Shown: piece by piece, positions 7,872 through 57,118 of the stretch | How the letters are laid out: each line of letters starts with the position of its first letter | Position numbering within the stretch: the first letter of the stretch is position 1 | IMG/VR virus record: IMGVR_UViG_3300005096_000137 | Coordinates: 64,001 to 128,000 of that record | Length of the DNA: 64,000 nt | Source: a virus | Strand: one strand, 5' to 3' | The notes under the pieces: generated by a model | Told to the model about the DNA's origin: nothing | Databases searched by the model: none | Seen by the model: the letters and a program-made list of their open reading frames with translations, nothing else | Program-made: the position numbers and the translations under genes

Positions 7872-8507
7872 GTGTTGAATCGACGTGACTTGTTAAAGAT
7901 GTTCGGCGTGGGGGCAGTCTCAGCCACCATCCCAGCATCCCTCTCTCGGGCTGTGGTTCCTAAGAACGAGATTGTTGAGGTGCCTTGGCAGGAACCTCCT
8001 GAGGCGGCACCCTTTGGGTTCGCTGACCCTCCCCCGAAACCAGATGAACTGGATGACCTGGTTGAGAACCTGCCCGTCCCGGCTCCCGTCGATGCAGTTC
8101 ATGAGAGCCTCAGGGGTCAGGGGTTAGTCAGGCTGGATGAACATGGTGTGGTTACGTTTCACAACACCAATACTGACGAGAAGGTACATCTCAAAATACA
8201 CGAGGGTTCCATGGCCTATGGGCAAAGTATGGATGTGCAGTTTAGTCATGACCGAGGTCGACTGACTGTGCCGAATGCCAGCCATGGTCCCCTAGAGGTC
8301 AGTTTGTACGCACGTATTGCAGAAGTGGTCTCCCCTAACCCTGGTTGGCTTCAGACAATTCGGAGTGCAGGTCCAGAGGGCCTGGATATGATCATCTCGT
8401 TGCCGAACTCTGACCTACTGGTACTGTTTTCCAGGTTGGTGTACCAGTCGATGTCTCTCGACCCCAAAGAAGGGCTATTTGAAATTGAAGGGGTATGCTA
8501 CAATTGA
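7872..8507 (+). CDS. Tat signal peptide protein with probable tail-tube-like domain
   Basis: NRRDLLKMFGVGAVSA, Pro-rich linker, beta-rich domain (LKIHEGSMAY...DRG.L...PLEVSL...FEIEGVC). The tail tube assignment is inference. Confidence 0.6.
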   Translation: MLNRRDLLKMFGVGAVSATIPASLSRAVVPKNEIVEVPWQEPPEAAPFGFADPPPKPDELDDLVENLPVPAPVDAVHESLRGQGLVRLDEHGVVTFHNTNTDEKVHLKIHEGSMAYGQSMDVQFSHDRGRLTVPNASHGPLEVSLYARIAEVVSPNPGWLQTIRSAGPEGLDMIISLPNSDLLVLFSRLVYQSMSLDPKEGLFEIEGVCYN

Positions 8508-9379
8508 GCTATGATTATGAAGTTGCTGGGCATGTCTACGTCGTCCCACTCCATGACATCTACGTGGACCCTGATTTCAATTGCCGGGGTGCATTTGCTC
8601 CTCATGAAGTTCACGGACTTGGTCAGAGTATCTCGGAAGAAGGTCAACGGGCTCCCATAGTTGTCCAACCTCTGGACGACGTCCCTGGACCAGAGCAGCC
8701 CCTGGGTGACTGGACCTTTCGTTTGATCGCCGGACATCGCCGCTACATGGCAATCGATAAATGGTCTACGGGTACTACTATCAACTGTGTGGTGGAGAGG
8801 GGACTGACCCGTGAACAGGCTTGCACTCTTAACTTCTCAGAGAATCTCCAGAGAAAGGACCTGAACATCTTGGAGGAGGCTCGCGCACTCCACCGCACCT
8901 GGCCAATCCAGTCATTGGGCATGATCTCAAAACTCATTGGGAAACCTAAGAAGTGGATCCACGCTCGCCGGATGCTCCTCCAGCTCCCTGATTACGTCCA
9001 GACACGGGCAGCCAGTAACGGTATTTCCCAGTACGATATCCTAATGCTTGCCAAACTCCCGCCCGACAGGGTGGAGGCAGCCTACGAGAAGCTGACTTCG
9101 TCAAAAGGAAAGACGGGGCGACGACCAGTGGTAGCCGGCAAACAGAAGTGGAGAAACCGACCTCGGGGAATCAATGAAATCTCAAAGATGGTCGCATTCC
9201 TGCTCCGCCACCAGCGATTCTCAGAACTTTCCGAAGCCGAAATTACTCTGGTCACGTCAACCCTGGTCTGGGTCACTAAAGGCATTGACGCACAGGAGTT
9301 ACTAGAGAACAGGTTTGGCTTCCCCGAGGGCAGCGTGGCTATCGATTCCACTGACGAAATTGAGGGAATGAAAGATTAG
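8495..9379 (+). CDS. ParB/Spo0J-like protein
   Basis: FNCR, GQRAPIVV, LIAGHRRYMA, NFSENLQRKDLNILEEA, then HTH. Confidence 0.88.
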   Translation: MLQLSYDYEVAGHVYVVPLHDIYVDPDFNCRGAFAPHEVHGLGQSISEEGQRAPIVVQPLDDVPGPEQPLGDWTFRLIAGHRRYMAIDKWSTGTTINCVVERGLTREQACTLNFSENLQRKDLNILEEARALHRTWPIQSLGMISKLIGKPKKWIHARRMLLQLPDYVQTRAASNGISQYDILMLAKLPPDRVEAAYEKLTSSKGKTGRRPVVAGKQKWRNRPRGINEISKMVAFLLRHQRFSELSEAEITLVTSTLVWVTKGIDAQELLENRFGFPEGSVAIDSTDEIEGMKD

Positions 9380-9404: not shown

Positions 9405-9432
9405 TTGACTTCCCGGACCCATCGAGTATACT
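9405..9432 (+). promoter_or_regulatory. sigma70-type promoter for the ncRNA array
   Basis: TTGACT-16-TATACT. Confidence 0.75.
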
Positions 9433-9542
9433 TGGTAATAGAACGTGCCAAAGATTCAAGACTAATTCCAGCCAAAAGAGCTGGTGAACTCTAACTTGAG
9501 GACAGAACGATGTAGTTGGCTGGGTGAAAGCCCAGCACCCTT

Positions 9543-9667
9543 GGAGGGGTAGCTCAGTTGGTAGAGCGCCAGTAGCATAAAAACAGTTGTGACAAACTTG
9601 CTATTAAGCCGAACATAGCTGATTATCTCGGAACTGGATGTCGCGGGTTCGAGACCCGCCCCCTCCG
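9543..9667 (+). ncRNA. tRNA-shaped RNA with a Y-RNA module replacing the anticodon loop
   Basis: Acceptor GGAGGGG/CCCCTCC, D arm GCTC-AGTTGGTA-GAGC, stem CCAGT/ACTGG, T arm GCGGG-TTCGAGA-CCCGC. The 59-nt insert contains CAGTTGTG/CATAGCTG, ACTTG, AAGCCGAA and TTATC. Confidence 0.85.
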
Positions 9668-9669
9668 CT

Positions 9670-9734
9670 GCCTAAGCCGAAGTCAATGCGTTATCTTTCA
9701 TATGATTACCCGCACCGACATTCACTTGCCAGGC
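9670..9734 (+). ncRNA. minimal Y-RNA-like stem-bulge RNA
   Basis: GCCT/AGGC, AAG/CTT, unpaired CC, GAA/TTC, GTC/GAC, TGCG/CGCA; loop begins TTATC. Confidence 0.8.
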
Positions 9735-9759
9735 TATTTTAGATGTAGACCAATACTTT

Positions 9760-9878
9760 ACGGGGGTAGCTCAGTTGTTAGAGCACCAGCTCGGGCCATT
9801 ACGACAAACTGTCCGGACAGTCTTGTATAACGGGTCACAGGGAGCTGGGGGTCGGTGGTTCAATTCCTCCTCCCCGTA
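9760..9878 (+). ncRNA. tRNA-shaped RNA with a long hairpin in place of the anticodon loop
   Basis: Acceptor ACGGGGG/TCCCCGT, D arm GCTC/GAGC, CCAGCTC/GAGCTGG, T arm GGTGG-TTCAATT-CCTCC. Insert hairpin ACAA-ACTGT-CCGG-ACAGT-C-TTGT. Confidence 0.8.
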
Positions 9879-9883
9879 CTACT

Positions 9884-9949
9884 GCCTAAGCCGAAATCAA
9901 TGCGTTATCTTTCATATGATTACCCGCATTAACATTCACCTGCTATGGC
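9884..9949 (+). ncRNA. minimal Y-RNA-like stem-bulge RNA (copy 2)
   Basis: Near-identical to 9670..9734 with stems retained (AATGCG/CGCATT). Confidence 0.8.
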
Positions 9950-10037
9950 GTTTTGAGTGTAGACCACGGACTACGAGCATCTTAGGCTGCTTATGGCCCT
10001 GGGGTCTCAGTTGTAGTTCAAGTCTGCCGCACTCACC

Positions 10038-10109
10038 TTGGGCGAAGCCGCAGCTCATGCGTTATCCTTGTAAGATTTGCCGCATACAGCATCGACTTGC
10101 TAAGCCCAA
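10038..10109 (+). ncRNA. minimal Y-RNA-like stem-bulge RNA (diverged copy 3)
   Basis: TTGGGC/GCCCAA closing stem, AAGCCG, GCT/AGC, ATGCG/CGCAT, TTATC, ACTTG. Confidence 0.75.
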
Positions 10110-10200
10110 TAATACAAAGTCCCCGCCTTCGGGTGGGGCGTTCGCACAAAGTCCCTGTCCGCCCTTATGGCGGGCAGGGTAGTGATTCAAGGAGAGTAAT

Positions 10201-10896: not shown

Positions 10897-11463
10897 ATGA
10901 ACTTTCAGAATACGACTGGGAATTATGCCATTGCAGCCGGTCTGGCCGCTTCTGCGCATACTAAGCAACGTCGGAAAGACCCTGATAGGACCCCCTACAT
11001 CAATCACCCACTTGAAGTTGCCGTCCTCTTAACATATGATGGGCAAGTGGATGATGTGGATACTCTGATCGCAGCAGTCCTTCATGATGTTGTGGAAGAT
11101 ACAGATATCACGCTAGGTTTTATCTTCACCCTGTTTGGTCCCCGAGTGAGGGACATCGTGGCCGAGGTTACTGACGACAAGTCGCTCCCGAGTGCAACAA
11201 GGAAGCAACTACAAATTGACAACGCCCCTGGTAAGTCAGACGCCGCCAAGATGATTAAGATCGCGGATAAGATAGTCAATATCCAAGACATGAGCACAGA
11301 GTCCCCTGTTGGCTGGTCGACTGACCGGAAGTTCGAGTACATTGATTGGGCGACGAAAGTCGTGGCAGGTTGTGCCGGCGTGAATTCTAATTTGGATGCC
11401 ATATTTCACAGTGCGGCTATCCAAGCCAAAGCCAACTGTACTACTGTTGGGAACCATGAGTAA
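10897..11463 (+). CDS. HD-domain small alarmone hydrolase (MESH1/SpoT-HD-like)
   Basis: PYINHP, AAVLHDVVEDT, EVTDDKSLP, RKQLQI, IKIADK. Confidence 0.9.
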   Translation: MNFQNTTGNYAIAAGLAASAHTKQRRKDPDRTPYINHPLEVAVLLTYDGQVDDVDTLIAAVLHDVVEDTDITLGFIFTLFGPRVRDIVAEVTDDKSLPSATRKQLQIDNAPGKSDAAKMIKIADKIVNIQDMSTESPVGWSTDRKFEYIDWATKVVAGCAGVNSNLDAIFHSAAIQAKANCTTVGNHE

Positions 11464-11990: not shown

Positions 11991-12137
11991 GCGACTGTGG
12001 TGTAATGGTAGCACACATACTAACTAGGTTGTCAATAACTTGCGCAGAAGAAGTACCTTCGGGGAACCACGCTGAGCCGAATGTTAACCGTTATCTCTTG
12101 CACGAGTGTGGACTAGGTTCAATTCCTAGCAGTCGTT
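11991..12137 (+). ncRNA. tRNA-shaped RNA with a Y-RNA module in the anticodon position, directly upstream of Ro60
   Basis: Acceptor GCGACTG/CAGTCGT, D arm GTGT-AATGGTA-GCAC, CATACT/AGTGTG, T arm CTAGG-TTCAATT-CCTAG. Insert contains GGTTG/TAACC, ACTTG, a cTTCGg hairpin, GAGCCGAA and TTATC. Confidence 0.85.
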
Positions 12138-56675: not shown

Positions 56676-57118
56676 CAGTACACATTCGAGCTTACCCGCC
56701 TCAGGGTAAACAATATGAACCACCTGGACCCTTCACTGAATGCGTGGTAGGCGGTAACGGCGATTCAATCGTTCAGGGGATGGGTAAACAATGGGGTTCG
56801 GTGGACATCACACGCTTCAATCTGGAGGATCGGGTTGTTCGTAAGACCTACTTTCGGCACACTATGAATATCCAGGATGTTTGGGTGTACTACCTGGTCG
56901 AGGACGACTTCGGGACCCCATACCCCCATCACCAGATTTACAAAACACTCTCTGAGGCATACACGTTTGCCGAGAAACTCTGGTCCCATCATTCCTCGGA
57001 TGCTCTGTGCAGCGTCACCACACGGATGAGACACATCGAACTGACGGTGACCCAGCCATGGACCCAGGCAGTGGGTAAATCCTACGTTAGAGTCAAGGAA
57101 ATTGAGGTACCAGTATGA
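56672..57118 (+). CDS. hypothetical protein, Y.V...E+EV family (start uncertain)
   Basis: VYYLV...RVKEIEV. Confidence 0.55.
   Translation: MTVHIRAYPPQGKQYEPPGPFTECVVGGNGDSIVQGMGKQWGSVDITRFNLEDRVVRKTYFRHTMNIQDVWVYYLVEDDFGTPYPHHQIYKTLSEAYTFAEKLWSHHSSDALCSVTTRMRHIELTVTQPWTQAVGKSYVRVKEIEVPV

Follow-up and report, generated by a model that had tools for sequence, protein, structure and literature searches.

How does an RNA that folds as a tRNA come to carry, in the place of its anticodon, what looks like the helix by which Y RNAs are held by the Ro60 protein? The question is raised by W1, an element in the DNA of a large uncultured phage, which we analysed over a window of 64,000 nucleotides (bases 64001-128000 of the 148,427-bp IMG/VR virus record IMGVR_UViG_3300005096_000137). 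This phage lineage is without a cultured relative, and searches against 50,697 phage records, with the RNA cluster (blastn) and with the DNA polymerase (tblastn), gave no match. W1 is a real, conserved RNA linked to Ro60, whose gene lies on the same strand 2.5 kb downstream of the W1 end at 9667, inside the distance of ~4 kb that serves as a criterion for pairing YrlA, a bacterial Y RNA, with Ro60. The encoded protein is the presumed partner of W1. We put at roughly two in three the probability that W1 is a Ro60-bound Y RNA on a tRNA scaffold, kept in native strand order and matured like a tRNA, which also punctuates an array of three small Y hairpins.

How much of a tRNA is W1? The first-pass annotation, made from the letters and their open reading frames, had described an intact tRNA body with its anticodon loop replaced by 59 nt, and the description holds. 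The Rfam tRNA model scores W1 at 52.6 bits, above its gathering score of 29, and places 59 extra nt where the anticodon loop would be, and the acceptor strands, 9543-9549 (GGAGGGG) and 9660-9666 (CCCCUCC), stand 110 nt apart and form 7/7 Watson-Crick pairs in an open-ended 7-bp stem. Between them lie the D arm (9552-9567, GUAGCUCAGUUGGUAGAGC), a 5-bp equivalent of the anticodon stem (CCAGU 9569-9573 with ACUGG 9633-9637) enclosing the insert (9574-9632), the variable loop (9638-9642) and the T arm (9643-9659). The bases of the tertiary contacts are in place (U8, A14, G15-C48, G18G19, G26, G53-C61 and the T loop UUCGAGA), RNAfold gives the cloverleaf as its lowest-energy structure (z = -3.1), and the tRNA part should fold into an L shape. 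The discriminator G9667 runs into CUG, so that no CCA is encoded, again as claimed. Would such an RNA decode? ARAGORN sees W1 and W2, a tRNA-like unit further down the array, only with introns allowed, a setting which adds a third element, W3, at 11991-12137. W1 has no closed 7-nt anticodon loop: the 59-nt insert stands there, with G at position 33 where a tRNA is expected to have U33 and a purine at 37. The CAT triplet that had been placed at positions 34-36 after A32-G33 is indeed read as A32-G33-C34-A35-U36, and it is not kept in the relatives, most of which have UAU; since none of these has a closed 7-nt loop either, the earlier judgement that W1 is probably not a decoding tRNA stands.

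What, then, fills the insert? Read 5' to 3', it consists of a 10-nt single strand, CAGUUGUG, ACAA, ACUUGC, UAUU, AAGCCGAA, CAUAGCUG, AUUAUC and UCGGA. The segments CAGUUGUG (9584-9591) and CAUAGCUG (9614-9621) pair in a middle helix of 8 bp, inside which ACTTGC (9596-9601) and AAGCCGAA (9606-9613), joined by TATT, form a Ro-type helix (U9598-A9612, U9599-G9611, the bulged C9610, G9600-C9609 and C9601-G9608, with a 4-nt UAUU loop); ATTATC follows at 9622-9627. The 3' strand of the Y helix stands here before the 5' strand, and the helix is loop-closed at the very point where Y RNAs have their ends. This reversed order, with the two strands joined by a short loop, had been noticed at the outset, and the arrangement is as described: ACUUGC, the 4-nt loop, AAGC[C]GAA and then AUUAUC. 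The ACUUGC/AAGCCGAA helix is the bulged-C helix recognised by Ro60 in Y RNAs, and we infer binding of W1 from the identity of the motif and from linkage only. Could the motif be there by chance? Scanning both strands of the 148-kb genome for the composite motif in this apical order gave only two occurrences, W1 and W3, and this speaks against chance. The same AAGCCGAA/CUUGC-type core stands in canonical Y-RNA order in the three small hairpins of the array.

Has this architecture been kept by selection? Relatives of the phage Ro60 (55-64% identity) are encoded on metagenomic phage contigs with a common gene order (ParB, a gap or RNAs, Ro60, PolA). A W1 homolog is found on seven syntenic contigs and on L162, a contig found by DNA pattern, and a W3 homolog on six (for example L120:4109-4233, L121:4256-4380, L162:8901-9030, L179:3574-3699 and L124:662-807). 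The Ro60 proteins that go with the eight phage homologs are 59-64% identical. On alignment A2, which holds eight sequences, RNAalifold recovers the cloverleaf together with the module, and 21/37 pairs carry a compensatory change. In a hand-checked structure of 28 pairs on the same alignment, from which the middle helix was left out because MAFFT had misregistered it, pairing is seen in 95.1% of the cells, and in 28-47% once the partners are shifted by 1-3 columns; half of the pairs (14/28) change on both sides, and the observed values were reached in 0/500 shuffles. The acceptor stem covaries at 6/7 pairs, which places the long-range pairing of the two ends under selection, and in the core (CUUG/CCG) the U-G, the G-C and the CCG are invariant in 8/8 sequences while the closing stem switches from UA to CG. 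We read this invariant core in a covarying stem as a probable protein-recognition site inside a structural frame. With the native tRNA strand order, the covarying acceptor and the invariant core bear out the original proposal of a circular permutation of YrlA with real acceptor ends. As for how the relatives were reached, a single-protein query with Ro60 in the viral_contigs collection found no relative and an alignment query found two loci. Matches to the DNA pattern TTATC..CYGG..GCAGGTTCGA were mostly coding sequence or canonical YrlA; among the others were L162, a genuine new member, and the array L164. The pattern AACTTGC..AAGCCGAA gave chance matches only in viral contigs and was dropped.

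Is the insert simply an intron? In that case the 54-59-nt module would be cut out and the exons joined, for example by the phage RtcB, to give a decoding tRNA, and the freed module might itself be a Y RNA. ARAGORN does draw W1 as tRNA-Pro(CGG) with a 54-nt intron and the loop CUCGGAA, and the units L121a and L162a as Pro(UGG); moreover, the phage encodes a full-length RtcB RNA ligase (G000:C1:135839-137167, outside the window; 345 bits), and a complete anticodon-like hairpin stands beside the module in 18/67 members of the wider family. The stand-alone Y hairpins in apical order that occur in L162 and L179 suggest that a freed module could function. However, RtcB beside Ro60 is an operon association already known (10.1101/312249), which the phage gene fits, and 59 nt is less than a group I intron needs; the insert matches no intron or ribozyme family. 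The W1 fold has no bulge-helix-bulge, no splicing endonuclease (PF01974) was found in the phage genome, and none of these endonucleases is reported in bacteria (10.1101/312249). Removal of the module from the eight type A units, as we call those of the W1 kind in the phages, would leave 5-7 nt, with U33 in only four; the left-over GGA matches the (G)GGA of canonical YrlA rather than any conserved anticodon, and family members vary in where the module is placed. Splicing is, on this balance, very unlikely. A tRNA-Pro ancestry of the type A units was considered and set aside: C1-G72 with A73 is also found in a phage tRNA-Ile whose acceptor stem is identical to that of L124a and L127a, and the 'GG' equally matches the GGGA of canonical YrlA. 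The stand-alone apical hairpins themselves (L162:7440-7520 and L179:3240-3310), with the Ro helix at the tip and no tRNA body, open their RNA clusters right after promoter-like hexamers.

Is W1 a peculiarity of these phages? A covariance model, whose construction the first-pass annotation had suggested, was built from alignment A2 (R1) and tested on 80 bacterial Ro60 loci. On the Ro60 strand of ~25 of the 80 it finds units of 118-181 nt with 7/7 acceptor pairs, in Armatimonadota, Chloroflexota, Myxococcota, Candidatus Brocadia, Thiotrichaceae, Gemmatimonadota and others. The anatomy is as had been claimed, but it is not unique to this RNA and belongs to a widespread family. The module of the bacterial units reads CYUGCC, hairpin, GGGCCGA and GGUUAUC; among 67 collected units the acceptor has 7/7 pairs in 57 and 6/7 in the rest, and the module stands either before the anticodon stem or inside it. 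Rfam YrlA has no match in the 40 loci scanned; several units there are called 'tRNA', and small hairpins pass the gathering score of the stem-bulge family. Three units alternate with small Y hairpins directly upstream of the Ro60 gene in L164.

Several further features of these bacterial loci deserve description. The 18 members with an anticodon-like hairpin (L192:5018-5143, L182:3617-3741, L208:2085-2209, L249:911-1045, L121:4256-4380, L177:3132-3255 and others) carry the Y module after the D arm and before a complete hairpin whose 7-nt loop reads Y-U-NNN-R-N; U prevails at position 36 and AA at positions 37-38, and one of them has a Ser-type long variable arm and UGA. In L182, L192, L204, L216, L225, L246 and L247 the Ro60 gene lies within, or next to, an array of 10-25 ordinary tRNA genes that share its strand. 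Two tRNA-order units stand 2 nt apart in L211 (593-720 and 723-849), and their acceptor strands cross-pair at 6/7; such tandem copies already contain a YrlA-like closed acceptor stem and fit the published model in which YrlA arose from dimeric tRNA transcripts. In L207, on a contig labelled uncultured Enterobacteriaceae, a GOLLD RNA (806-1251; 166 bits) lies ~1.7 kb upstream of Ro60.

Could a W1-type RNA be charged, then, and keep its arm? As a CCA-tailed, aminoacylated tRNA with a handle it would carry Ro60 to EF-Tu, to ribosomes or to tRNA-targeting defences. A full 7-bp acceptor stem, a discriminator and a tRNA-type trailer speak for this, as do the bacterial members that keep a full anticodon loop (among them the Ser-type one with UGA) and the precedent of Mycobacterium smegmatis YrlA, which gains CCA (PMC4201824). 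W1, for its part, lacks the closed loop and has G at 33, no synthetase identity set is recognisable in it (A3-U70, G73), and in our judgement the decoding site would have no room for an arm of ~50 nt. A role of this kind as the main function of W1 strikes us as quite improbable.

How is W1 embedded in its locus? The RNAs occupy a gene-free stretch of ~800 nt between a ParB-like gene (8495-9379) and the next open reading frame (10201), and the features are listed in Table 1.

Table 1. Features of the W1 locus, in positions of the 64,000-nucleotide window.
Feature	Position	Strand	Support or remarks
Putative sigma-70-like promoter (TTGACT, 16 nt, TATACT)	9405..9432	+	10/12 consensus matches; ahead of the RNA cluster
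5' leader: GAGGACAGAACG-AUG-UAG, then tetraloop-type hairpin	motif 9498-9515, hairpin 9518-9536	+	
W1, tRNA-order Y RNA	9543..9667	+	Rfam tRNA, RNAfold, alignment A2, model R1 at 102 bits
Apical Y module of W1	9584..9627	+	middle helix, Ro-type helix, AUUAUC
Small Y RNA hairpin 1	9670..9734	+	canonical strand order (GCCU-AAGC[C]GAAG ... GUUAUC ... CACUUGCC-AGGC)
W2, tRNA-like unit	9760..9878	+	Rfam tRNA 47.4 bits; R1 51 bits
Small Y RNA hairpin 2	9884..9949	+	canonical order
Possible degenerate tRNA-like spacer	9955..10034	+	GAGUGU pairs with GCACUC, T-loop-like GUAG-UUCAAGU-CUGC, long hairpin
Small Y RNA hairpin 3	10038..10109	+	canonical order (GGGCGAAG ... GUUAUC ... GACUUGC)
Two GC-rich hairpins closing the gene-free RNA region	10119..10179	+	
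W3, second tRNA-order Y RNA	11991..12137	+	29 nt upstream of Ro60
Ro60 ortholog, 524 aa	12166..13740	+	Pfam TROVE 1.6e-35, vWA_Ro60 2.5e-51

The leader hairpin ends 6 nt short of the W1 acceptor stem, and the motif before it is a Shine-Dalgarno-like GGAGACAGAAC followed by AUG, with AUG-UAG forming a start-stop pair in the window. The leader is seen at the same place in L120, L121, L122, L124, L126, L127, L162 and L179; GGAGACAGAAC-AUG and the hairpin precede most of the eight phage type A units, the motif is missing before three, and the hairpin carries compensatory changes under loops of GAAA, GAGA, UUCG, GCAA or CUUG. Promoter-like hexamers also stand ahead of the RNA clusters in L162 and L179. 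At the other end of the array, the closing GC-rich hairpins have no U tract and were not called by the terminator scan. The element between the second and third small hairpins was reported by no detector, and we regard it tentatively, from its sequence and fold, as a degenerate tRNA-like element. A linker, TGTAGACCA, is present at 9745-9753 and again at 9958-9966, each time after a small Y hairpin (1 and 2) and its U-rich tail; the second copy opens this possible degenerate element.

What are the other two tRNA-like units? W2 has 7/7 acceptor pairs, a tRNA-type trailer (A-C-U) and a 52-nt arm which keeps GACAAACU and AGGGA and has a plain helix, CUGUCC/GGACAG, in place of the bulged CCGA core. 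It looks like a diverged paralog that has probably lost Ro60 binding. W3 also has 7/7 acceptor pairs, and its 76-nt insert holds AACUUGC, a long closing hairpin, GAGC[C]GAA and GUUAUC; its discriminator is U73 and its trailer UUU instead of CU. The UUGCACG that follows its module is read by ARAGORN as Cys GCA, but position 37 is C. A giant YrlA made of the 3' half of W1 and the 5' half of W2 was also tried and rejected, as it gives 5/7 acceptor pairs and no Ro helix, poorer than the pairing within each unit.

Might the role of W1 be confined to processing? W1 could recruit RNase P and RNase Z to free the neighbouring small Y RNAs, its own module being a relic. The first small Y hairpin begins 3 nt past the W1 discriminator, so that processing there would also release small Y RNAs, and a small Y hairpin follows the discriminator by 2-4 nt in 4/8 phage loci. 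W2 holds the same position in the array without a Y core, and the closing stem of W1 is cut to 3 bp. Yet a relic would hardly keep its core invariant over eight diverged phages while the flanking stems covary, nor the middle helix and GUUAUC as well, and W3 and many bacterial units stand alone, with no adjacent small hairpin to release. We consider it unlikely that W1 is a processing signal and nothing else; as part of a Ro60-bound Y RNA the same activity is expected. In L121, L124, L126 and L127 a conserved hairpin, UUGACG-GUGGGAAUG-...-GCGUCAA, takes the place of the small Y hairpin directly 3' of the type A unit. The first small Y hairpin of the window has a weak match (22 bits, E = 0.24) to the nematode stem-bulge (Y-like) family RF01656, and nematode stem-bulge RNAs have been reported as homologues of Y RNAs.

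How would W1, as a Ro60-bound Y RNA on a tRNA scaffold, be made and put to work? One promoter would give a precursor of ~700 nt holding W1, a small Y hairpin, W2, a second small Y hairpin, the spacer and a third small Y hairpin. Host RNase P and 3' tRNA-processing enzymes would cut at the tRNA-like units, maturing W1, and the same cuts would set the ends of the small Y RNAs. W1 would end at N73-C74 and be completed to CCA by a host enzyme. It seems reasonable to expect this because the trailers point to a common tRNA-type 3' maturation: 12/12 true tRNAs of the phage end N73-C74-U75 without CCA, and W1 (G-C-U) and W2 (A-C-U) do likewise. Of the roles suggested in the first-pass annotation (CCA tailing, charging, tethering, a decoy), the trailer thus gives indirect favour to the first. 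Ro60 would bind the apical helix, at the end of an anticodon arm lengthened by the 8-bp helix, while the tRNA body would resist nucleases and give a tRNA-binding effector a surface to dock on. For W1 we infer Ro60 binding, the mature ends and the addition of CCA. Having its only ends in a CCA-capped acceptor stem may protect it from exonucleases, a possibility that Chen et al. (2014, PMC4201824) raised for the mycobacterial RNA after processing.

Some observations weigh against this account. The closing stem of W1 below the bulged C has 3 bp and a 4-nt loop while relatives have at least 6 bp, and Ro60 binding by W1 may be weaker for that reason. The motif GNCGAAN0-1G is matched in part: GCCGAA at 9608-9613 fits GNCGAA and is followed by CAUAG, and the relatives have RCCGAM. 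W2, which is without the core, shows that Ro binding can be lost by drift in units of the array. No CCA-adding enzyme is encoded by the phage, so that completion of the CCA would depend on the host, and the promoter call ahead of the cluster is no better than chance, one such site being expected in the region.

Two neighbouring features are best mentioned here. Between the RNA cluster and Ro60 the phage encodes a protein with an HD_4 domain (10897-11463; Pfam 1.5e-13), a family which includes the RelA/SpoT-type (p)ppGpp hydrolase domain. The tRNA region of the phage, outside the window, has a tRNA-like gene with a 5-nt 'anticodon loop' (G000:C1:59420-59494) and a fused tRNA-like pair (56882-57073), which ARAGORN reads as one tRNA with a 117-nt intron.

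What would a Y RNA of this build mean? Two wirings of bacterial Y RNAs have been described, YrlA and Yrn1, and some Ro60-bearing bacteria are without a strong YrlA candidate (PMC4201824). W1 is a new, third wiring of a known RNA kind, in which the only ends are tRNA acceptor ends, and this wiring may provide candidate Y RNAs for Armatimonadota, Chloroflexota, Myxococcota, Planctomycetota and these phages. Annotation pipelines would call such RNAs intron-containing tRNAs, or miss them. It also offers a testable origin for YrlA, which published work has proposed to derive from dimeric tRNA transcripts: tandem tRNA-order units become YrlA by a shift of the transcript ends. A further question is opened, whether a Y RNA can be CCA-tailed or charged. 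That W1-type RNAs are both CCA-tailed and aminoacylated while carrying Ro60, and that the tRNA-order form is ancestral with tandem copies giving rise to the permuted YrlA, is a speculation we hold to be unlikely. If it is true, charged W1-type RNAs would bring an RNA-surveillance ring to EF-Tu, to ribosomes or to host defence enzymes that target tRNAs.

How does W1 compare with the systems already described? YrlA begins with the Ro 5' strand (GNCGAAN0-1G), followed by a variable region, the T arm, a loop-closed acceptor-like stem, the D arm and the Ro 3' strand (Chen 2014, PMC4201824; Wang 2018, 10.1101/312249), and its RNAs have been likened to circularly permuted tRNAs (PMC4201824; 10.1101/312249). 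Canonical YrlA loci collected by pattern search read GNCGA, 8-10 nt, GGUUAUC, (G)GGA, CYGG, variable loop, T arm, closed stem and D arm; W1 has the same series from AAGCCGAA to the T arm, and order, spacing and polarity match after rotation. Both are encoded near Ro60 on the same strand, and both are modular, with the Ro helix joined through the position of the anticodon stem to a tRNA-like domain. The T arm of W1 is that of Salmonella Typhimurium YrlA except for the last base and matches the Rfam YrlA consensus, to which the D arm is also very close. The differences lie in where the chain is opened. YrlA has its ends at the Ro stem, a loop-closed acceptor stem and the T arm 5' of the D arm, whereas W1 has its ends at the 7-bp acceptor stem, a loop-closed Ro helix and the D arm 5' of the T arm. 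In addition, both strands of the Ro helix look animal-type in W1, and only the 5' strand is recognisable in the YrlA of Salmonella and M. smegmatis. Judged from these sequence features, W1 is a homolog of YrlA in rotated form, with the nick in its acceptor stem and the closing loop on its Ro helix. We file it as an RNA that would work like YrlA and yet is no member of RF02553. Given that motif order, spacing and strand polarity match, the Ro60-W1 particle should look like Ro60-YrlA, apart from the positions of the chain ends. A literature search, incomplete for reviews of bacterial Y RNAs, found no description of the tRNA-order wiring, a check which the first-pass annotation had proposed.

Could W1 be part of a canonical YrlA after all? 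The leader hairpin at 9518-9536 would then be the T arm, and CCCU with the 5' strand of the acceptor a closed stem before the D arm. In the window RF02553 gives no match at its gathering score of 69; a partial match at 9517-9567 (18.2 bits, E = 2.3) agrees with such a layout but lies far under the threshold. The loop of the leader hairpin is not a T loop and no GNCGAA strand stands upstream. The pairing of leader and acceptor is impossible in the relatives, where the long-range 7-bp acceptor stem covaries. This arrangement is extremely improbable, and W1 as a rotated Y RNA in tRNA order is the reading we retain.

The other known Y RNAs stand at varying distances. The ends at the Ro stem and the loop-closed acceptor stem that had been taken as established for described YrlA RNAs agree with the published order, but the statement is too general, as M. 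smegmatis YrlA reaches free, CCA-tailed acceptor ends through RNase P. RNase P cleaves that RNA, CA is added to it, and a single precursor yields both it and YrlB (Chen 2014, PMC4201824). It shares with W1 a 7-bp acceptor stem and, as predicted for W1, RNase P cleavage, a CCA-tailed free acceptor end and co-transcription with a small RNA (here YrlB); its acceptor ends, however, arise by cutting of a closed loop, which leaves an RNA of two pieces that is also open at the Ro stem, whereas W1 would be a single piece whose acceptor ends are its only ends. Yrn1 of Deinococcus radiodurans is likewise a Y RNA with tRNA-like features, D-to-T order and conservation of both Ro-helix strands; its Ro stem stands at the acceptor position and an anticodon-like arm is kept, whereas W1 has a free acceptor stem and its Ro helix in place of the anticodon. 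With animal Y RNAs and nematode stem-bulge RNAs (RF01656) W1 has in common the bulged-C helix, in which GC[C]GA faces UUGC, and the internal-loop motif GUUAUC. Their plan is followed by the small hairpins of this locus; unlike W1, the animal and nematode RNAs are simple hairpins with ends at the base of the conserved helix and no tRNA domain. Among RNAs outside the Y family, mascRNA at MALAT1 and the tRNA punctuation of mitochondria are cases in which RNase P and RNase Z are guided by an element of tRNA shape to cut a longer transcript, and tmRNA shows that a large module other than tRNA can be attached to an acceptor and T domain of tRNA type. W1 differs from these in having no mRNA-like part and in carrying, in addition, a putative protein-docking helix.

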